Shown here: positions 8,615-30,697 of the stretch, one piece after another | How positions within the stretch are numbered: the first letter of the stretch is position 1 | How the letters are laid out: each line of letters begins with the position of its first letter | Origin: a virus | Virus genome (UHGV): UHGV-1292713 | DNA: 30,697 bases | Reading direction: 5' to 3' (one strand) | Program-made: the position numbers and the translations under genes | The notes under the pieces: generated by a model | Database searches by the model: none | Told to the model about the DNA's origin: nothing | The model's input: only the letters and a program-made list of their open reading frames with translations

Positions 8615-8953
8615 CTATTTCCCTGAATTTACGACGAAACTGTTCGAGCGGACTGAAGCACTCATGCTCATAGCCTTCGCGGAGGTAGATAACCCGTTGT
8701 GTTTCCGGTTCCCAACGAATGACTCTGACGGGCACTCCGTAGTGATCTTTGAACCAGCGGTTAACTTGTCGCAAAGGACTGTCTCCTTCTGCCGGTTGAA
8801 ATCCCCCACAGCCCACTCTGCAAAGCTGTGGGTTACAATTTCCCTGTCACCTGGTACATTCACTGCATAGCAATATTCCACCTTCGCTTTTCCACCCGGT
8901 ACAGGAAGCGCAATCAGTTGCGAGCGACGGTAGTGTGTTGTTAAACTGTTCAT
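8615..8953 (-). CDS. Hypothetical protein, possibly frameshifted (C-terminus may continue in the overlapping frame ending 8595)
   Basis: ATG at 8953 overlaps the TGA of the upstream gene (ATGA coupling). The N-terminal half looks protein-like and the tail degenerate, whereas overlapping ORF 8595..8816 has a protein-like C-terminus; a ccccc run near 8806-8810 lies in the overlap. Confidence 0.35.
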
Positions 8954-9519
8954 GCGTTAGTTTCTCCACAACCAGAAGCAATCGACGCCACGACGCCCGG
9001 AGCTGCACACTCGCGGGCGTCATTACTTTCTGAAATGCAAAAGATTTTGTAGACCAGTGCTGCATGCTCCTGCAGCTTCGAAATTGAGAGATACAGCTCG
9101 TCGTTAATTGCTGTCTTCTCATGCGGTTCCACCACACCGTCTTCGATTGCTGAACGAATCTGTTTTGAATAACTGCCGATCTGTTCAATGACTTCCAGCA
9201 GACGCTGGTTAATATCGGCGTTGTCCACATCCTCGACGTCAGGAAGCGACACAAAGACGCCATTTGCAGACTGCGCCACAGCATCAGCAATGAAGTGAGT
9301 GCCACCAGCACGCTGTAAAACCATTGTCCATCCCAGCGGGAAAATCTGATCGCCATCTGCACGAAGGCGGTTGAATAAAGCGTTTTCTGTTACATCGAGC
9401 CAGTCAGCCGCTTCAGCGTAACCACCCGGCAACGCCGCGATAGTTTTTCTGACAGCTTTCACGTACCACTCAGGCTGTTTTTCTATTTTCCAGTGATGCT
9501 TACCCACGATTAGCCTCAT
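8950..9519 (-). CDS. CII-like / YdaT-like regulatory protein
   Basis: 189-aa ORF immediately downstream of the cro-like gene; N-terminal region is CII-like in character. Family assignment is tentative. Confidence 0.45.
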
Positions 9520-9550
9520 CGTTCTGTGGTTAAAAATTGAAAGTGTTCTG

Positions 9551-9751
9551 CTAATCTTTCGGATAGATATCCGGTCTTAAGTCAGATTTCGTAATTGCAC
9601 CTGACGTGCATTGCTCAAGTTTTTTAGCCAGCACAAAACTGGCTTTTTTATAGCCATTGAAAACCAGCCGTAAGTAGCCAGGAGTTGAGCCAACTTTTCC
9701 GGCCAACTCGCCCTGCTGTTCTTTGGTTAAAGAGTCCCAATACGCTTTCAT
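9551..9751 (-). CDS. Cro-like / YdaS-family DNA-binding protein
   Basis: Start assigned to the ATG at 9751 (MKAYWDSLTKEQQGELAGKVGSTPGYLRLV...) with GGAGGT Shine-Dalgarno 9 nt upstream; divergent from the cI-like repressor. The ORF-track frame 9551..10054 extends upstream through non-protein-like sequence. Confidence 0.65.
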   Translation of the reverse strand: MKAYWDSLTKEQQGELAGKVGSTPGYLRLVFNGYKKASFVLAKKLEQCTSGAITKSDLRPDIYPKD

Positions 9752-9755
9752 ACAA

Positions 9756-9826
9756 TATGTACCTCCGGTGTACATATTACATGATTGAAATGAACCTTCA
9801 AGATACTTGTACCTTAACGGTACAAG
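9756..9826. promoter_or_regulatory. Divergent cro/cI control region with two TGTAC-N7-GTACA operator palindromes
   Basis: atatgtac-ctccggt-gtacatat (about 9757-9779) and cttgtacc-ttaac-ggtacaag (9806-9826) between the cro-like start (9751) and the cI-like start (9842). Confidence 0.5.
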
Positions 9827-9841
9827 GGTTTTAATTTCGTT

Positions 9842-10516
9842 ATGAAAACAATCCATGACATCCGGCGGTCTAACGCCAGAAAACTGAGAGATGGTGTTGG
9901 AGGGAATTCTTCCTTTGCCACTATGATTGATCGCGAGCCAACCCAGACCAGCAGGTTTATGGGAGATGGTGCTACTAAAAATATCGGTGACAGCATGGCA
10001 CGACACATCGAAAAATGTTTCGACCTGCCTGTCGGATGGCTCGATCAAGAACACCAGACAACGAACATCACAAAAAAACCTGATGTTTCAATCACTAATA
10101 AACAAATCACATTAGTCCCTGTCATATCATGGGTACAGGCCGGAGCATGGAAAGAAGTTGGATATTCTGAGGTTGATTTGAGCACAGCAGAAACGTATCC
10201 CTGCCCTGTACCCTGTGGGGAAATGACTTATATCTTGCGGGTGATAGGTGATTCAATGATTGATGAGTACCGCCCGGGAGACATGATTTTTGTCGATCCT
10301 GAAGTACCTGCCTGCCACGGTGACGACGTTATTGCATTGATGCACGATACAGGTGAAACCACCTTCAAAAGGTTGATAGAAGATGGGACACAGCGTTATC
10401 TCAAAGCGTTAAACCCAAACTGGCCTGAGCCTTACATTAAGATCAACGGTAATTGCTCTATAATTGGAACTGTGATTTTCTCAGGAAAACCAAGAAGATA
10501 CAAAATCAAAGCCTAA
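9842..10516 (+). CDS. cI-like prophage repressor (N-terminal HTH, C-terminal S24 LexA-type peptidase domain)
   Basis: 224-aa ORF; C-terminal RVIGDSM...GDMIFVDPEVP...GDDVIAL...TFKRL is the S24 autopeptidase signature; divergent from the cro-like gene. Confidence 0.8.
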   Translation: MKTIHDIRRSNARKLRDGVGGNSSFATMIDREPTQTSRFMGDGATKNIGDSMARHIEKCFDLPVGWLDQEHQTTNITKKPDVSITNKQITLVPVISWVQAGAWKEVGYSEVDLSTAETYPCPVPCGEMTYILRVIGDSMIDEYRPGDMIFVDPEVPACHGDDVIALMHDTGETTFKRLIEDGTQRYLKALNPNWPEPYIKINGNCSIIGTVIFSGKPRRYKIKA

Positions 10517-10528
10517 TCAATGTTTATG

Positions 10529-10552
10529 AACCTGCTTCGGCAGGTTTTTTTA
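10529..10552 (+). terminator. Rho-independent terminator after the repressor gene
   Basis: aacctgc-ttcg-gcaggtt hairpin followed by a T7 run, 13 nt after the cI-like stop. Confidence 0.65.
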
Positions 10553-10555
10553 TAC

Positions 10556-10583
10556 TTGACAATGTACCTATGAGATACATAAT
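10556..10583 (+). promoter_or_regulatory. PL-like promoter (TTGACA-N16-CATAAT) with an operator-like half-palindrome in the spacer
   Basis: Consensus -35 TTGACA at 10556-10561 and -10 CATAAT at 10578-10583; the spacer contains TGTAC-N7-ATACA, resembling the cro/cI operators. Confidence 0.5.
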
Positions 10584-10661
10584 GTACCCAAGAGAAACAA
10601 CAAACAGGCAGGACGCCCACGAAGTAGCCGCCTGGGGCATATGAAGTCCAGGATGATTCGT

Positions 10662-10691
10662 TAGCAACAAAAAAGCGCCCTACAGGACGCT
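10662..10691 (-). terminator. Rho-independent terminator for the convergent zinc-ribbon gene
   Basis: Read on the minus strand: agcgtcc-tgta-gggcgct hairpin (one G-U pair) followed by ttttttgttg; 40 nt after the stop at 10731. Confidence 0.55.
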
Positions 10692-10730
10692 TAGCTCTTT
10701 AACAATCTGGATATCCACAACAGTAGTAAT

Positions 10731-11222
10731 CTACAGATTGCCGTTAAGTTTTCTGGACAACTCCTCAATGGATGGAGGCGATACGTAATCCGGATTTTTA
10801 TTCATCAGAAACTTATTTTCACAGTGGAGGCACCTGCTTTTATGAAAAAGCTCATCTTCGCTAACCGGGAATGGTTGAAGTATCGATACTATCTTTTGTC
10901 CAAAACATTTTGGGCAAAGATGCATGGTTATGCTGCCACCGTTCACGATTACCTCCTTCGAGTATACAAAAGTACCCGACTCAAGTTGGTTAAGGATATA
11001 GCCTTCCGTCTGAGCCTCAAAGTTTTCGAATTCTGCAATTTTAGCTTTGAGAGAAGCATTTATTTCTTGATAAGAGCCCACCAGTTCAACGAGAGACACG
11101 CATTCGCGCTGAATAGACGCAAGCTTTGAGTTCAGCTCACCAATAGCCGCATTTACTTCAGCTTGAGTTTTTGCCTCGTTCATTAGTTTTGCAATCTGGG
11201 CTGTTTCACGAATAGCCGTCAT
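10731..11222 (-). CDS. Hypothetical coiled-coil protein with C-terminal zinc ribbon, at the locus where lambda carries rexAB
   Basis: Start assigned to ATG at 11222 (MTAIRETAQ...), 164 aa; the ORF-track frame extends to 11510 through non-protein-like sequence. N-terminal ~80 aa predicted coiled coil; CPKC...CLHC pair; AT-rich; own terminator; convergent with cI. Confidence 0.6.
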   Translation of the reverse strand: MTAIRETAQIAKLMNEAKTQAEVNAAIGELNSKLASIQRECVSLVELVGSYQEINASLKAKIAEFENFEAQTEGYILNQLESGTFVYSKEVIVNGGSITMHLCPKCFGQKIVSILQPFPVSEDELFHKSRCLHCENKFLMNKNPDYVSPPSIEELSRKLNGNL

Positions 11223-11534
11223 TGCTGCCGTTAATTCAGCGATCACATTGAATACTCTTATTGTTGTTGGGGATATCCAGATTAACCGAATCCTTGTTGT
11301 TGGGGAATAACCAGGTCCACCTCGCCTGATGTGGCTAAAAGCAGGCACATAACAGCTAAGTATTTTCAACCAGAGAGAATCCTTAGCGTTGTGGTGAATG
11401 CGGCTCAGCGCACGCGGGTTAAGGTTGAGGCTGACAGTCGACCTTCTGTGGATACCCACCCGCCTGGTGTGCAACCTTCGCCAGGCACCGGGAGGCACCC
11501 GGCACCACAAGTTTATGCTGTGTGTAGTCCTGGC

Positions 11535-11580
11535 GGTACCAGTTTGTACCCTTGCTTCCGGCTGGTACCGTCCTTTTTTG
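11535..11580 (+). terminator. Terminator-like hairpin in the early-left leader
   Basis: 8-bp stem ggtaccag / ctggtacc (11535-11542, 11562-11569) with 19-nt loop, followed by gtcc + T6 (11574-11579). Confidence 0.4.
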
Positions 11581-11716
11581 CAAAACAGAGAAGAGCATCA
11601 CCGGACGACGGGCTCATAACCCAATCCATCCGGGCGGCTGCCACCGCAGGTGTTCTTCTCTGTTTTGTGGAGAAACCAACCGACCTTGCAGGGTCGATAT
11701 GATGAGGAGCAGCAAA

Positions 11717-14291: not shown

Positions 14292-14662
14292 TGGAGCCAT
14301 ACAGCCTCACACTCGATGAGGCCTGTCATTTTCTCAAAATATCCAGACCGACTGCCATTAACTGGATACGCACAGGCCGCCTACAGGCAACACGTAAAGA
14401 TCCAACCAAGCAAAAATCTCCTTACCTCACAACACGGCAAGCTTGCATTGCGGCGCTTCAGTCTCCGCTGCATACTGTCCAGGTGAGCGCGGGTGATGGC
14501 ATAACAGAGGAAAGAAAATGTCACTCTTCCGCAGAAATGAAATATGGTATGCCTCGTATTCGCTCCCGGGCGGGAAACGAATTAAGGAATCTCTTGGCAC
14601 AAAGGACAAGCGGCAAGCTCAGGAGTTGCACGACAAGCGAAAAGCAGAACTCTGGCGAGTAG
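14291..14662 (+). CDS. Excisionase-like (AlpA/Xis family HTH); 3' extent uncertain
   Basis: Start at ATG 14291 ([31 protein letters not shown]...), overlapping the upstream stop. The frame stays open to 14662, overlapping the integrase start at 14518; the functional product may be shorter. Confidence 0.45.
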
Positions 14663-15681
14663 AAAAGCTAGGGGATTTACCTGATGTCACTTTTGAAGAG
14701 GCCTGCCTAAGATGGCTTGAGGAAAAAGCTGATAAAAAATCTCTCGATTCAGATAAAAGCCGGATTGAGTTCTGGCTTGAACATTTTGAGGGTATAAGGC
14801 TTAAAGATATCTCGGAGGCAAAGATTTACTCTGCTGTAAGCAGAATGCATAACAGAAAGACGAAAGAAATATGGAAACAGAAAGTTCAGGCCGCCATCAG
14901 GAAAGGTAAAGAACCGCCTGTTTATGAACCAAAGCCAGTATCAACTCAGACAAAGGCAAAGCATCTTGCCATGATAAAGGCCATTCTCCGTGCTGCAGAA
15001 CGCGACTGGAAGTGGCTGGAAAAAGCGCCTGTCATCAAGATACCAGCGGTCAGAAACAAGCGAGTCAGATGGCTGGAAAAGGAGGAAGCAAAACGCCTTA
15101 TTGATGAGTGCCCCGAACCACTGAAATCTGTCGTCAAGTTTGCGCTGGCAACTGGTCTGAGAAAGTCGAACATCATAAATCTGGAATGGCAACAAATCGA
15201 CATGCAGCGACGAGTTGCCTGGGTGAATCCAGAAGAGAGCAAATCAAACCGCGCCATTGGTGTGGCGCTGAACGATACCGCCTGTAAAGTGTTGCGTGAT
15301 CAAATAGGCAAGCATCACAAATGGGTGTTTGTACATACCAAGGCGGCTAAGCGAGCAGATGGAACATCAACGCCTGCGGTCAGGAAGATGCGCATCGACA
15401 GCAAGACATCATGGCTATCAGCTTGTCGTCGTGCAGGAATTGAAGATTTCCGTTTCCATGACCTCAGACACACCTGGGCAAGCTGGCTGATCCAGTCAGG
15501 CGTCCCATTATCTGTGCTTCAGGAAATGGGCGGATGGGAGTCCATAGAAATGGTTCGTAGGTATGCTCACCTTGCGCCTAATCATTTGACAGAGCATGCA
15601 AGGAAAATAGACGACATTTTTGGTGATAATGTCCCAAATATGTCCCACTGTGGAATTATGGAGGATATAAAGAAGGCGTAA
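14518..15681 (+). CDS. int: Tyrosine site-specific integrase (DLP12 IntD-like, tRNA-Arg-targeting)
   Basis: 387-aa ORF with the C-terminal catalytic signature ([10 protein letters not shown]...VRRYAHL); immediately followed by a tRNA-Arg 3' fragment. Confidence 0.9.
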
Positions 15682-16163: not shown

Positions 16164-17117
16164 ATGCGGGCGAAACTTCTGGGAATAGTTCTGACAACCC
16201 CTATTGCGATCAGCTCTTTTGCTTCTACCGAGACTATATCGTTTACTCCTGACAACATCAATGCGGACATTAGTCTTGGAACTCTGAGCGGAAAAACAAA
16301 AGAGCGCGTTTATCTAGCTGAAGAAGGAGGCCGAAAAGTCAGTCAACTCGACTGGAAATTCAATAACGCTGCAATTATTAAAGGTGCAATTAATTGGGAT
16401 TTGATGCCCCAGATATCTATTGGGGCTGCGGGCTGGACTACTCTCGGCAGCCGAGGTGGCAATATGGTCGATCAGGACTGGATGGATTCCAGTAACCCCG
16501 GAACCTGGACAGATGAAAGTAGGCACCCTGATACACAACTCAATTATGCCAACGAATTTGATCTGAATATCAAAGGCTGGCTCCTCAACGAACCCAATTA
16601 CCGCCTGGGACTCATGGCCGGATATCAGGAAAGCCGTTATAGCTTTACAGCCAGAGGTGGTTCCTATATCTACAGTTCTGAGGAGGGATTCAGAGATGAT
16701 ATCGGCTCCTTCCCGAATGGAGAAAGAGCAATCGGCTACAAACAACGTTTTAAAATGCCCTACATTGGCTTGACTGGAAGTTATCGTTATGAAGATTTTG
16801 AGCTAGGTGGCACATTTAAATACAGCGGCTGGGTGGAAGCATCTGATAACGATGAGCACTATGACCCAGGAAAAAGAATCACTTATCGCAGTAAAGTCAA
16901 AGACCAAAATTACTATTCTGTTGCAGTCAATGCAGGTTATTACGTAACACCTAACGCAAAGGTTTATGTTGAAGGCGCATGGAATCGGGTTACGAATAAA
17001 AAAGGTAATACTTCACTTTATGATCACAATGATAACACTTCAGACTACAGCAAAAATGGTGCAGGCATAGAAAACTATAACTTCATCACTACTGCTGGTC
17101 TTAAGTACACCTTTTAA
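16164..17117 (+). CDS. ompT: Outer membrane protease OmpT (omptin family)
   Basis: 317-aa ORF with signal peptide; sequence matches my recollection of E. coli OmpT essentially throughout. Confidence 0.9.
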   Translation: MRAKLLGIVLTTPIAISSFASTETISFTPDNINADISLGTLSGKTKERVYLAEEGGRKVSQLDWKFNNAAIIKGAINWDLMPQISIGAAGWTTLGSRGGNMVDQDWMDSSNPGTWTDESRHPDTQLNYANEFDLNIKGWLLNEPNYRLGLMAGYQESRYSFTARGGSYIYSSEEGFRDDIGSFPNGERAIGYKQRFKMPYIGLTGSYRYEDFELGGTFKYSGWVEASDNDEHYDPGKRITYRSKVKDQNYYSVAVNAGYYVTPNAKVYVEGAWNRVTNKKGNTSLYDHNDNTSDYSKNGAGIENYNFITTAGLKYTF

Positions 17118-21789: not shown

Positions 21790-22365
21790 CTACGGTAGGG
21801 CTGGCCATTCAATATCCGGTGCAGTTGATGTATCAACACGATTCAGCAACACCCGATACTTTTTCCAGGCTTCCAGCAACAAGGTTTCTTTCTCCGTTGC
21901 GATCTCCAGATCCACAGCATCCTGAAGCGGCGCTATATGCTCACTGGCTACCTGCATCAGGCTGTTTTTTGTTTCTTCCGCCTCCCGGATCCGGAACAGT
22001 TTTTCTGCTTCCGTATCCTTCACCCAGGCTGTGCCGTTCCACTTCTGAAACTCCCCTTCCGGGGATAACCAGGTGACATTTTCCGGTAATGAGCCGAGTT
22101 CAGAAATAAATAACGCGTCGCCGGAAGCCACGTCATAAACCGTTTTACCCCGATGATCTTCAACGAGATGCCACGATGACTCATCACTGTTGAAAACAGC
22201 CACGAAACCAGCCGGAATATCTGGCGGTGCAATATCGGTACTGTTTGCTGGCAGACCTGTATGAGGCGGAATATATGCATCACCTTCACCAATAAATTCA
22301 TTAGTTCCGGACAGCAGATTATAAATTTTTATGGTCCGTGGTTGTTCACTCATTCTGAATGCCAT
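21790..22365 (-). CDS. tfa: Tail fibre assembly protein (Tfa)
   Basis: 191-aa ORF overlapping the stf stop (TAATG); conserved Tfa C-terminus. Confidence 0.8.
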
Positions 22366-25300
22366 TATGCAAGCCTCACAATATAGTTAAATGCGATGTT
22401 TTTGACGGTGTTTTCCGCGTTACCAGCAGCGTTAACGGTGATGGTGTGTCCATGTGAGCCAATCGCAACCGAGTGCGTATGAGCACCAATACCGACAGTA
22501 TGTGCGTGAGCACCTGCAGATGCAGCTGTGCCGCTGACACTATGAGTGTGCGCTCCTGCAGCACTTGTATTCACACTGGCCGCAGACACTACCTTATGTA
22601 CTGACCCATTTTGTGACCACTGGCTGACTGCTGATGCGCCTGTGACACTATGAGTATGGTTTCCGGCACTTGCGGCTGTACCGCTCACACTGTGCGTATG
22701 CGCCCCGATGTTATTCGTGGATTTAGTGCCGTAATCAAACGACGATGTGGTTTTCGTCCCCAAATCCGTACTGGATGCGCTGGCGCTGTGGGTGTGCGAT
22801 TTAATGCCGTCCTGTTCCTGAGACAATACAGCCCGACCACTGGCAGGTTTGCCCTTAATCGTCCAGCCACGCATATCAGGGATCACGCCTGACGGATAAG
22901 CGGCTGCAAGTTTCGGGTATGCAGATTTGTCAAAAGTCTGCCCCTGCATCAGGGCATAACCAGACGGAACGGTATCTGATGGCCACGGGATTGGTGCACC
23001 GACTGGATAAAACTCTGCAGGAGGATGAGCTGAGGTGTAAAGCTGCGCCCACGGCGACCAGTTTGCGTCGGTCGTATCCCGTCGTGAACGAATAAATGCC
23101 GGAGCATGAGCACCGCTTGTACCACTCCAGCCGATGAGTAACTCACCTTCGCCAACGGCTGTCATCCCTTTCAGGTGAATGATATTTCCATACACTGTTG
23201 GATATCCGTTGTTATACACCTCGTATAACTCAAGACCTGTTGCCCCCTGCGTATTGTCTGTCAGCGCGATTACCCGACCTTTTGAAGCCAGATTAACTGA
23301 TGATACTGCTGTTCCACCTGACGGTAACGCCCCGATCTCTGATGCCGTTGGCTTATTTCTGGAGTTATAGTCCCTTCGCCAGCCAGGTGAATAATCTGTT
23401 CCGTGATTAATATAGGTAAGCTGAGCGTTAGTTGTTCCACCACCAGTGGAGGTGGTCGGTGTGGTAATGCGGATCGTCATCGCTGACTTTATCCCCATTA
23501 CTTCAATGACAGCTCCGGCGAGATGAATATTACCGCAGCCAGTATCAGTAATGATTTTATTATTGCCATAAGACCAGGAACCCTTGCACATCCAGTATGG
23601 ATGGTTAAATGCTCCCTGAGAATCCAGCCACTCGATAAACTGTGCAGTCGTCCAGTCTCCTGTTGTTGTGCTTACTGACCCACAGAAGGCGCGGCAGGCA
23701 CCAATATTTTTCGTAAAGGTGTCTTTGCCAGGGATATCCGCACCGTTCTGATCTTTCTGCAGACGTTTCTCAGCATTGTCATTGGCTGCTTTTACTGCCT
23801 TTGGCGTTGCCGCCAGCGTTTCAGACGTGCTGTTGGTCGCGCTGCTGAGCTGAACTATCCCTTTCTGTGCTGTCGTTGCATCCTGTGCGGTGTATTTCCC
23901 GTTAGCCAGGTCATACGCGGCCTTAACTGCTTTTGGCGTTGCCGCCAGTGACTCGGAAGTGCTGTCGATCGCACTGCTGAGCTGTACTATCCCCTTTTTC
24001 GTCGTGCTCGCATCCTCAAGCGCCACGGCGGATGCAATATCCTCTGCCCGTTTTGCTGCTGTCTCAGCGCGCGTTGCCGCGGATTCTGCTGTACTTTTGC
24101 TCTGTGCTGCCGCCGTCGCACTGCCAGCTGCCTCTGTCGCCTTCGTGGATGCCGTCGTGGCGCTGCCCTTCGCTGCTGACGCCTGTCTGGTCGCCTCATC
24201 TTTTGAAGCAGACGCAGATGATGCCGATGACGCCGCCGAACTGGCTGACGATGCGGCTGCCGTTTTTGAGGATTCTGCACTGGTTTCCGACGCTTTCGCA
24301 TTCGTTTCGGATGTCTTCGCTGCGGATGCAGACCTCGCTGCTGCGCTGGCCTGTTCAGCGGCTTCGCCAGCCTTCGTTGTAGCTGTTGAAGCGGACGATG
24401 CAGCGCTTTCTGCCGATTTTCCGGCGGCAGTGGCACTGGCTGAGGCCTGCCCGGCACTTGTTGACGCTGCACTGGCAGACGACGCAGCCGCTGTTTTTGA
24501 GCCTGCTGCTGCGGAGGCACTCTGTTCCGCTGCCGTTTCAGAAGCCTTGGCGTTCGTCTCGGACGTTTTTGCCGCCTTCGCGGAATTTCCTGCCGCCGTA
24601 GCCGAGGAAGCTGCGCTGCTGGCGCTCGAGGCTGCGTTCGTTTCTGATGATTTTGCCGCCTCTTTTGAAGCCGACGCATCCCGTGCTGAAGTGGCTGCTT
24701 CTGACGCTTTCGTGGTCGCGGTGGATGCAGAAGTGGCTGCTGATTGTTGTGACGCTGCCGCATTCGTTTCTGACGTTTTTGCCGTAGCGGCACTGGTGGC
24801 CGCCGCGCTTTTTGAGGACTCTGCAGCGGCAGCACTTTTTGATGCTTCAGTGGCCTTTGCTGATGCCGTTCCTGCGCTGGAAGACGCTGACTGAGCCGAC
24901 GAAGCGGCCTGTCCGGCTGACGTGCTGGCTGCGCGTGCTGAGCCTGCAGCATCAGTCGCATGGGTTGCCGCCTCACGGGCTGATGTGCTGGCATCGCTGG
25001 CTGACTTCTTCGCGGCTGCTGTGTTCTGTGCCACCGCGGACGCGTTACGCGCCACCTCTTCCACCATCAGTTCAAAACGTCTCAGTGCCTCCGGACGGGC
25101 ATCATCCTCCGTCATGGCACCGAGAAAATCATTCAGCGTACCGGGTTGAGAATCTTCATACACGGTGATGGTCCCGGCATGTGACGGCGGGAATCCCTCC
25201 ACCAACAGAATAACGCTGTACTGACCGTACTCAACGTCCATACTGTAACGCCCGGCTTCATCCGGATTTTCTGAGGCCAGCGTGTTCACCACCACCGTGT

Positions 25301-25391
25301 TGCTGTTACGTTTTGCTTTCAGCTGGATTGTGCAGTTCTGTACCGGTTTTCCTGTGCCGTCTTTCAGTACACCTGAAATCTTTACTGCCAT
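22365..25391 (-). CDS. stf: Side tail fibre protein (lambda Stf-like), with Ala/Ser-rich repeat region and C-terminal HTHS repeats
   Basis: Start assigned to ATG 25391 ([12 protein letters not shown]..., as in lambda Stf as I recall it); the ORF track begins 2 codons upstream at a GTG. Long Ala/Ser/Thr-rich low-complexity core and GAHTHSVSG repeats near the C-terminus. Confidence 0.85.
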
Positions 25392-25402
25392 ATTCACCCC
25401 AC

Positions 25403-25428
25403 AAAAAAGCCCGCCTGAACCGGCGGGC
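25403..25428 (-). terminator. Rho-independent terminator between lom and stf
   Basis: gcccgcc-ggttca-ggcgggc hairpin on the minus strand followed by T6 (plus-strand A-run 25403-25408). Confidence 0.6.
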
Positions 25429-25455
25429 TGTCATAACACTGTGTTACCTGGCTAA

Positions 25456-26055
25456 TCAGAATTTATAACCGACACCCACGATGAAACCGTCAGTGCGCCA
25501 GTCACCACTGCCTGAGCCTTCATAAGCAATATCAATGGCCACGGATTCGGTCGGGTTAAACTGCACGCCAGCCCCCCACGCCAGAGACGTGTTGCTGTGG
25601 CGACCGTCATCACTTCCGGTCAGCACATCGTGCTTTTTCCCCTTGTTGTCAGTTACGCGGATATAATCTCCGGAGAAAGTCGAAACACGGCTGTAAGCCA
25701 CACCCGCCATCGCATACGCGCTGAACCATTCATTCACGCGCACAGACGGCCCCGCCATCACGCTGAACCAGCGGTTACGCACGGAATCTTCATGCCAGCG
25801 GGTATCGCTGTAATGAGTCAGCTGGCGATTCTTGTCTTCTGCATAGCTGAATGACGTCACCATCCCCAGCGTGTCCGTAAACTCATAACGGTATTTCACG
25901 TTAATCCCGTTAAGATCATCACTGCCGGGAACGTTGGTCCGGGCATGAAGATACCCCGCGCTCAGCGTGGACTGATGTTCAGACGCCCATGCAGGCGCAC
26001 AGGATACGGCCAGACAAATGGCTGCGGACAAAATGGCGGCATAAAGTTTACGCAT
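25456..26055 (-). CDS. lom: Lom/Ail/PagC-family outer membrane beta-barrel protein
   Basis: 199-aa ORF with signal peptide; C-terminus AYEGSGSGDWRTDGFIVGVGYKF matches lambda Lom as I recall it; sits between J and stf as in lambda. Confidence 0.85.
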   Translation of the reverse strand: MRKLYAAILSAAICLAVSCAPAWASEHQSTLSAGYLHARTNVPGSDDLNGINVKYRYEFTDTLGMVTSFSYAEDKNRQLTHYSDTRWHEDSVRNRWFSVMAGPSVRVNEWFSAYAMAGVAYSRVSTFSGDYIRVTDNKGKKHDVLTGSDDGRHSNTSLAWGAGVQFNPTESVAIDIAYEGSGSGDWRTDGFIVGVGYKF

Positions 26056-26078
26056 AATTACCTCTCGCTTTTCTGCAA

Positions 26079-26103
26079 TAAAAAAGGCGTCATTTCTGAC
26101 GCC
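26079..26103 (-). terminator. Rho-independent terminator between J and lom
   Basis: ggcgtca-gaaa-tgacgcc hairpin on the minus strand followed by ttttttatt. Confidence 0.6.
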
Positions 26104-26121
26104 CGTTATGGGTTATAAAAT

Positions 26122-29523
<3,402 letters not shown>

Positions 29524-30252: not shown

Positions 30253-30697
30253 TTGTCGGTATACCTCTCTCGTTTGCTCAGTTGTTCAGGAATATGGTGC
30301 AGCAGCTCGCCATCACCACAGTAAATGGCGGCATGATTCGGCACCGATGAACCAAAACAGCACAGCAGCACATCGCCCGGTTGTGCTGATGACAACGGCA
30401 CCTGATACAGCCCTGTGGCCTCCAGATTATCCAGATAGAGATTCTGACCGTGACGCCACCAGTCATCCTCGCGATGAAAATCCGGCATCTCAATCCCCGC
30501 CAGATGATAAGCATCCCGGAACAGCGTGTAACAGTCCGTCACCCCGTGCTCAAAGCGCCGCCCGGTGAGAGTGCGTCGCTGCCATTTGTCGGTATACCTC
30601 TCTCGTTTGCTCAGTTGTTCAGGAATATGGTGCAGCAGCTCGCCATCACCACAGTAAATGGCGGCATGATTCGGCACCGATGAACCAAAACAGCACA
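30150..30697 (-). CDS. K: Tail assembly protein K (NlpC/P60-type), 5' end beyond the window, carrying an internal in-frame repeat
   Basis: Translation matches lambda K C-terminal region as I recall it (LTGRRFEHGVTDCYTLFRDAYHLAG...NHAAIYCGDGELLHHIP...); overlaps the start of I; the frame remains open to the window edge. Confidence 0.7.
   Translation of the reverse strand, partial: CCFGSSVPNHAAIYCGDGELLHHIPEQLSKRERYTDKWQRRTLTGRRFEHGVTDCYTLFRDAYHLAGIEMPDFHREDDWWRHGQNLYLDNLEATGLYQVPLSSAQPGDVLLCCFGSSVPNHAAIYCGDGELLHHIPEQLSKRERYTDKWQRRTHSLWRHRAWRASAFTGICNDLAAASTFV
30571..30697. repeat. 127-bp perfect direct repeat of 30238..30364 (I start / K C-terminal region), period 333 bp
   Basis: Identical strings gtgcgtcgctgccatttgtcggtatacctctctcgtttgctcagttgttcaggaatatggtgcagcagctcgccatcaccacagtaaatggcggcatgattcggcaccgatgaaccaaaacagcaca at both positions; the second copy runs to the window end. 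Confidence 0.85.

Follow-up and report, generated by a model that had tools for sequence, protein, structure and literature searches.

An e14/SfV-type lambdoid immunity region and its predicted TGTACC-N5-GGTACA operators

We are confident, though short of certain, that positions 9752-10583 of the 30.7-kb virus sequence analysed here (30,697 nucleotides, the whole of which we call the window) form the immunity module, or lysis-lysogeny switch, of a lambdoid prophage of the e14/SfV type. The palindromes that it carries are very probably the operators of its repressor/Cro pair, a reading in which binding is deduced from co-occurrence, and comparison of related loci gives them the predicted consensus TGTACC-N5-GGTACA with a conserved half-site of 6 bp. 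A first-pass annotation of this DNA had described two palindromes and one half-palindrome; all of these are present, but the predicted layout has a strong, a weak and a strong site at OR and a strong and a weaker one at OL, three plus two instead of two plus one, the additional sites lying at 9791-9807 and 10583-10599. The features are as follows.

9551-9751, minus strand: cro-like gene, 66 aa, homologue of e14 ymfT/croE with a YdaS-family HTH; RefSeq label ymfT
9758-9774: predicted operator O_R-a (like lambda OR1), TGTACCTCCGGTGTACA, exact TGTAC-N7-GTACA
9762-9766, minus strand: putative cro Shine-Dalgarno GGAGG, 10 nt before the ATG at 9751, read from the sequence
9774-9801, minus strand: putative PR, TTGAAG (9801-9796), N16, TAATAT (9779-9774), read from the sequence
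9791-9807: candidate operator O_R-b, TGAACCTTCAAGATACT, weaker (7/10), over the PR -35, centred at -43 from the PRM start
9807-9842, plus strand: putative PRM, TTGTAC (9807-9812), N17, TTTAAT (9830-9835), N6, start at the A of the ATG at 9842
9808-9824: predicted operator O_R-c, TGTACCTTAACGGTACA, exact TGTACC-N5-GGTACA, spanning -34 to -18 of PRM
9842-10516, plus strand: cI-like repressor gene, 224 aa, ymfK/cohE homologue with an N-terminal HTH and a C-terminal S24 self-cleaving domain
10528-10551, plus strand: intrinsic cI terminator, hairpin and T-run (scanner)
10556-10583, plus strand: PL-like promoter, TTGACA (10556-10561), N16, CATAAT (10578-10583), 11/12 to consensus (scanner)
10563-10579: predicted operator O_L1, TGTACCTATGAGATACA, 9/10 with one mismatch, in the PL spacer
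10583-10599: predicted operator O_L2, TGTACCCAAGAGAAACA, 8/10, spanning -7 to about +10 of PL

The assignment to the e14/SfV type draws on both nucleotide matches and gene content. A megablast search with 9400-10800 returned 100% matches in many E. coli chromosomes, where the genes are labelled ymfK (LexA family), ymfT (YdaS family) and ymfL, and some match to this interval was found in 2646 of 5426 complete E. coli genomes. Among phages, the region matched the PhiR29 phages at 99.9%, Shigella phages SfIV and SfV at 98%, and Ayreon, 2H10, cdtI and a series of Stx2c-converting phages at about 95%. In the alignment with e14 of MG1655, everything between the start codons of cro and cI was 100% identical and the PL/O_L region nearly so, with one spacer base differing; the gene order ymfK/cohE, ymfT/croE, ymfL, taken from the ORF list and RefSeq labels, also matches e14. 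The two elements differ in their flanking cargo, since e14 has ymfJ where this prophage has a convergent ORF (10731-11222) after PL, and in their ends, which lie beside ompT here and in icd for e14. Compared with SfV, the spacers differ by a few bases and the right arm of O_R-a reads ATACA in that phage (9/10).

Public records already cover parts of this switch. The SfV GenBank record holds a regulatory feature, 'putative operator region', that corresponds to window positions 9757-9825 and runs from the first palindrome to the second, and the record of phage Ayreon carries a 'promoter' feature equivalent to 10556-10583. The e14/SfV immunity region is thus known and annotated in GenBank, ordinary for its kind and very common in E. 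coli. In the literature, the e14 cohE product is described as a CI-like, SOS-responsive repressor. We found no binding or reporter experiment on an e14/SfV-type repressor in the accessible literature, and in a search combining the TGTACC motif with operator, repressor and phage, the top-ranked paper contained TGTACC in a primer alone.

The repressor has the composition expected of a self-cleaving CI. Its C-terminus matched Pfam Peptidase_S24 (PF00717; 1.5e-26, 92.8 bits against a cut-off of 23.3) and the solved structures of the lambda CI C-terminal domain, UmuD and LexA. The sequence contains VQAGAW, GDSM and FKRL, in which, going by what is known of LexA and CI, we take the Ala-Gly of the first to be the cleavage site and the Ser and Lys of the other two to be the corresponding residues. 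The protein is 100% identical to the SfIV cI and 98.7-99.6% identical to those of 2H10 and the Stx2c phages, and over the first 88 residues it shares 98.9% identity with the cI of SfV. For the N-terminal domain, the sole match among solved structures was a weak one (PDB 5d50, 'Repressor', E = 0.0018), and sequence similarity to lambda CI was not detectable. On the minus strand, the 66-aa cro-like protein gave YdaS_toxin and HTH_3 matches in Pfam that were weak and below the curated cut-offs; the next gene (8950-9519) encodes a YmfL/CII(CP76)-type regulator, with an NCBIfam phage_reg_YmfL match above the cut-off (8e-50).

The first-pass annotation had placed two TGTAC-N7-GTACA palindromes between the divergent cro-like and cI-like genes, and both are there, at 9758-9774 and 9808-9824, within the 90 bp of intergenic DNA (9752-9841) that separates the minus-strand ORF at 9551-9751 from the plus-strand ORF at 9842-10516. 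The two are the only exact copies of the motif in the window, against 0.00 expected over 100 shuffles, and chance is excluded as the source of the palindromes. Both extend beyond the core motif: the full O_R-a palindrome covers 9754-9778 (AATATGTAC-N7-GTACATATT) and that of O_R-c 9806-9826 (CTTGTACC-N5-GGTACAAG). A motif search over the whole element, a check proposed beforehand, returned besides these two exact copies one copy with a single mismatch (10563-10579), the only one of its kind in the window, and a copy with two mismatches at 10583-10599. All five predicted operator sites fall inside two promoter regions. Within cI, the operator-like TGTACCCTGTGGGGAAA at 10207-10223 encodes the conserved peptide PCPVPCG, and its GTA codon varies synonymously among relatives, so that we regard it as a chance match.

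At the cro side, O_R-a spans about -7 to +10 of the putative PR and encloses the cro Shine-Dalgarno, and the PR -10 ends in a T that is also the operator's first base. This PR scores 8/12, under the threshold of the promoter scanner, which did not call it; the same geometry nevertheless recurs in relatives, for instance in EPP-1, where TTGCAG-16-CATAAT abuts the operator. The predicted PR start would fall near 9767-9769 on the minus strand, and that of PL near 10590 on the plus strand. Another palindrome in the same stretch, TTGAA-N7-TTCAA at 9785-9801, was considered as a middle operator or Cro site and rejected: it is broken in SfV, and the relatives do not keep it. It is incidental, reflecting the PR -35, and the real middle site is predicted at 9791-9807.

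The strongest argument for operators comes from a comparative footprint. Relatives were found with the N-terminal 75-88 residues of the repressor as query, and the footprint set (49-100% identity) comprised 32 loci, that is, 29 species-representative genome loci and 3 phages, with about 93 kb scanned. The genome loci came from E. coli, Atlantibacter, Leclercia, Pantoea, Enterobacter, Klebsiella, Kluyvera, Rahnella, Serratia, Proteus, Edwardsiella, Morganella, Salinicola, Pseudomonas, Amphritea and others. Among phage relatives, N-terminal identity was 62% for Edwardsiella phage EPP-1, 55-59% for several Pseudomonas phages, and 41% for both the H-19B-type Stx phages and Ralstonia phages.

With at most one mismatch allowed, O_R-a is centred at -76/-77 from the cI ATG in 24/32 loci, and five more keep the 50 bp to O_R-c where the cI start is offset. 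By the same measure, O_R-c is centred at -26/-27 in 24/32 loci and lies 2-23 nt further upstream in six more; two Morganella loci have degenerate OR sites, with two mismatches in O_R-c. In each of the 29 loci that yielded both sites, the distance between them is 50 bp, or 51 in two Pseudomonas phages. A further site recurs about 729 nt into the locus, within the TTGACA-16-CATAAT just past the cI terminator. Only two off-position matches occurred in the roughly 93 kb of relatives. Thus the search of related loci that had been suggested together with the operator reading found sites at the same positions in nearly all 32, and supports that reading as far as sequence can.

Column profiles of the sites show TGTACC and GGTACA to be near-invariant, whereas the central bases vary freely, with one exception: in the spacer of O_R-a, CTCC is kept as the complement of the cro Shine-Dalgarno, and nearly all relatives have CCTCC. 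The weaker sites follow the same pattern. O_R-b was found by scoring the aligned relatives at every offset: in 30 distinct relatives, it averages 6.1/10 at -17 from O_R-c against a background of 2.4 +/- 0.8; in the Pseudomonas and Salinicola group, the offset shortens to 16 bp. The left half of O_R-b reads TGAACC or TGTACC in nearly every case, and the right half resembles GTACT; part of this conservation comes from the PR -35 (CTTG), but the half-site lies outside that hexamer. O_L1 is a perfect palindrome at the same position in many relatives, and O_L2 has a conserved left half, TGTACC (10583-10588), and reaches 9/10 in the Edwardsiella and Trabulsiella loci.

Inverted repeats of this kind might also act as RNA hairpins, that is, as terminators or attenuators, and the scanner does flag 9806-9826 as a terminator-like element (8 pairs, then GGTTTTAATT). 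However, the arms are invariant in relatives, compensatory changes are absent and the loop varies, which is the pattern of a protein site and not of an RNA stem. The sites also lie upstream of transcription starts or at them, and the imperfect O_L1, O_L2 and O_R-b keep half-site identity, not pairing. The true cI terminator behaves in the opposite way, since in relatives the stem pairing and T-run are kept while the stem sequences differ. We therefore consider hairpins a very improbable explanation of the repeats.

Direct control of the switch by host LexA, with the palindromes serving as LexA boxes, seems to us scarcely credible, even less so than hairpins. In its favour are the SOS inducibility of the element and a superficial likeness of the motif to CTGT-N8-ACAG, but the spacing of the motif is wrong (TGT-N11-ACA versus TGT-N8-ACA), and neither promoter region holds a LexA-box match with one mismatch or fewer. 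Moreover, the literature describes the SOS-inducible division inhibitor of e14 as free of LexA repression.

As to which phage protein binds, the relatives that carry the sites share the recognition-helix motif REPTQxSR. The most closely related repressor to have been studied experimentally is, as we understand it, the cI of the Shiga-toxin phage H-19B. It has an N-terminal domain of the same family (about 41% identity over residues 6-81) but another recognition helix, and TGTAC-type sites were not found in its OR, nor in Ralstonia RSK1, which likewise combines about 41% identity with another recognition helix. The cro-like gene (31-100% identity across the set) is co-inherited with cI and the operators as faithfully as cI itself, so co-occurrence alone cannot separate the two proteins. 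The palindromes could then be targets chiefly or solely of the Cro-like YdaS-family protein, or of some other phage or host factor, with the S24 repressor recognising another sequence. We find this unlikely: the sites recur at PL beside cI, about 800 bp away from cro, no promoter that a prophage repressor has to silence lacks them, and the sequence and its relatives reveal no other conserved repeat in the intergenic region. In lambdoid switches, Cro and CI share operators, so binding by Cro is more a complement than a rival to binding by the repressor.

Considering the palindromes as operators of the repressor/Cro pair, we turn to the promoters that they overlay. The first-pass annotation had proposed a leaderless, PRM-type cI transcript, and this holds. 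Published dRNA-seq gives K-12 ymfK a leader length of 0 (Table S3) and counts it among only five leaderless E. coli mRNAs, with a class I TSS (Romero et al. 2014, PMC4681348); since the sequence here is identical, the start is A9842. The -10 element needs more care. The proposed TAATTT is present (9832-9837, followed by CGTT and the ATG at 9842), 4 nt before the start codon, but TTTAAT at 9830-9835, which matches TATAAT at 5/6 and lies 6 nt before the ATG, the canonical distance, is favoured across relatives: it is the frame from -12 to -7 that agrees best with TATAAT there, with a mean match of 3.76 against 2.41 for the TAATTT frame. Most relatives have T, C or G rather than A at -11 of this element, which is unusual. 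An A at this position of the -10 hexamer is usually essential, and the lack of it in most relatives makes PRM a tentative assignment or a promoter that may depend on an activator.

Repressor bound at O_R-c, given its place between -34 and -18, should block PRM, which would suggest negative autoregulation. PRM is nonetheless active in K-12 lysogens despite the perfect O_R-c, which points to partial occupancy or to an affinity ranking that differs from match counts. In lambda-type positive autoregulation, CI at OR2, about -42, stimulates PRM, and the weakest site is the one that overlaps PRM. Here the site centred at -43 from PRM is O_R-b, the weakest by sequence, and the PRM-overlapping O_R-c is a perfect palindrome.

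Immediately downstream of the cI terminator, the half-palindrome that had been noticed between the TTGACA and CATAAT hexamers (N16) was recovered at 10563-10579, with 9/10 positions matching. The promoter itself deserves the description near-consensus that it had been given (11/12); TTGACA-N16-CATAAT is conserved across Enterobacterales relatives and points at the early-left genes. Its CATAAT abuts O_L2, in the same geometry as O_R-a at PR. Our data support a PL-like promoter that is conserved and, judging by these sites, would be gated by the repressor. After it come the convergent ORF at 10731-11222 and other early-left genes: DUF2303, YfdR-like and DUF551 genes, then an excisionase-type HTH gene (xis) and an integrase gene (14518-15681). 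The gene ompT lies beyond the integrase, so the prophage ends there. A PL that reads toward xis and int fits the SOS-induced excision of e14-type elements after repressor cleavage. For the conserved leader that follows PL (10590-10735), no Rfam family was found, and its fold z-score of -1.1 was not significant.

Taken together, these features suggest the following working of the switch, in which the binding protein, the order of site filling, the negative autoregulation and the PR start are what we infer; the sequences with their positions and conservation, the protein domains and the K-12 transcription start are established. The repressor would bind as a dimer to the 17-bp TGTACC-N5-GGTACA operators. 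At O_R-a, it would occupy the -10 and the start site of PR together with the ribosome-binding site of cro; the weaker O_R-b would sit on the PR -35, and O_R-c between the two hexamers of PRM, the promoter of the repressor itself. O_L1 and O_L2 would cover the spacer and start of PL, from which transcription runs into the early-left genes. In a lysogen, the repressor would shut PR and PL and limit its own synthesis through O_R-c, its mRNA being leaderless and starting at the A of the ATG. Upon DNA damage, RecA-stimulated self-cleavage of the repressor would free the operators, and the Cro-like YdaS-family protein would then presumably shut PRM via the same sites.

This switch resembles that of lambda in its divergent cI and cro, its 17-bp twofold-symmetric operators on back-to-back promoters, its S24 self-cleaving repressor, the leaderless cI mRNA from PRM, and a PL that lies downstream of cI in the same direction with its own operators. 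The placement of the middle OR site is also alike, about -43 from PRM here and about -42 for lambda OR2. On the other hand, the operator sequence is unrelated, the sites are spaced by 33 and 17 bp as against 24 and 23 in lambda, PRM carries the perfect-consensus site while the weak one is in the middle, and OL has two predicted sites where lambda has three. Cro is of the YdaS family here, and the CII-like gene is of the ymfL/CP76 type. N and cIII are absent from SfV and SfIV, according to the authors of the SfIV paper.

Conceptually, this is a standard lambdoid switch, with nothing new in kind. What is gained is an explicit predicted consensus, TGTACC-N5-GGTACA, and a map of three plus two sites, for a module that roughly half of complete E. 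coli genomes contain, entirely or partially, and that is carried by K-12 e14, Shigella serotype-converting phages, and Stx2c- and CDT-converting phages. The map may be of use in predicting superinfection immunity among these phages and in reading the SOS-induced functions of e14, YmfM/SfiC and excision, and the repressor/operator pair may serve as one orthogonal to those of lambda, 434 and P22.

The sites had also been proposed to define the operator specificity of this immunity group. The operator part of that proposal stands, but the motif is common to repressors from several bacterial orders whose DNA-binding domains are 49-100% identical, and this invariance of the half-site raises the question of how the family sets immunity specificity. 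One joint reading, which we offer tentatively and think rather doubtful as a whole, is that the half-site TGTACC and the three-site geometry are invariant across Enterobacterales, Pseudomonas, Salinicola and Amphritea despite DNA-binding domains that are 49-100% identical, that specificity lies in the non-contacted spacer or in C-terminal cooperativity, or else that all these elements form one broad homoimmune group, and that the switch logic differs from that of lambda, with a consensus operator on PRM and a conserved PRM -10 lacking A at -11. If specificity were indeed determined in that way, it would not be set by half-site recognition, unlike in classical lambdoid phages. If instead there were one broad homoimmune group, e14 would protect K-12 against SfV-, Stx2c- and cdtI-type phages.

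We found that sequence conservation at this locus extends past the putative TGTAC operators into the leader following PL, the promoter at 10556-10583 (+) that reads into the early-left genes ending in xis and int. The features of this segment are:

10584-10665, + strand: conserved PL leader of about 80 nt, beginning GTACCCAAGAGAAACAACAAACAGGCAGGACGCCCAC
10692-10673, - strand: terminator belonging to the convergent ORF
10731-11222, - strand: ORF convergent with PL, its N-terminus coiled-coil and its C-terminus rich in Cys
11366-11581, + strand: match to the sRNA family STnc100, sub-threshold in Rfam

Both e14 and SfV keep the leader, as do several further enterobacterial relatives. An Rfam search of the leader returned no match, and folding it gave no significant structure. 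Candidate roles for the leader include a nut- or put-like element, a small ORF or an sRNA. According to the SfIV paper, the N gene is absent from both SfV and SfIV.

The convergent ORF, for which only a weak Pfam match was obtained, looks like a moron inserted into the PL leader, its position being occupied instead by ymfJ in the K-12 prophage e14 and by orf33 in SfV. PL transcripts would need antisense read-through across this ORF. Between it and the first early-left gene after PL lies non-coding DNA containing the STnc100-like stretch, which was matched over the full-length model (E = 2.6e-6) with a score of 39 bits, below the gathering score of 47.

At PRM, the promoter of the cI-like repressor gene, the -10 element (9830-9835) and the homologous positions in the related loci L004-L037 are kept as TnTAAT, position -11 holding T, C or G, and not A, in 23 of the 29 distinct relatives. 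A non-A residue here is unusual for a sigma-70 promoter, although PRM is active in K-12 lysogens. In the C-terminal region of the repressor itself, a YPCPVPC motif with two Cys (10195-10225; cI residues about 119-128) is strictly conserved among the enterobacterial relatives; we know of no counterpart in lambda CI or LexA.

The right part of the window contains:

14518-15681: prophage integrase gene
16164-17117: omptin (ompT-like) gene, following the integrase gene
22365-29520, - strand: large tail-type ORFs, right of the omptin gene

The succession of integrase and omptin genes places the right prophage boundary between these two, and the tail-type ORFs may be part of a second element. The 17-mer TGAACCAAAACAGCACA is present in two identical copies 333 bp apart (30348-30364 and 30681-30697), which suggests a direct repeat at the right window end.

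In E. coli SCPM-O-B-8794 (L009), the cro-like ORF upstream of 1410 extends into downstream sequence as a 230-aa fusion, probably because the prophage is decaying and has suffered a deletion or frameshift. Downstream of the cI homologue of Pseudomonas phage BR133a (L005), the TGTAC sites are absent and two copies of a different palindrome, TCTGTATATACAGA/TGTATATACA, stand in their place (2327-2340 and 2375-2384 of that locus); the early-left promoter of this phage may be gated by a different regulator.
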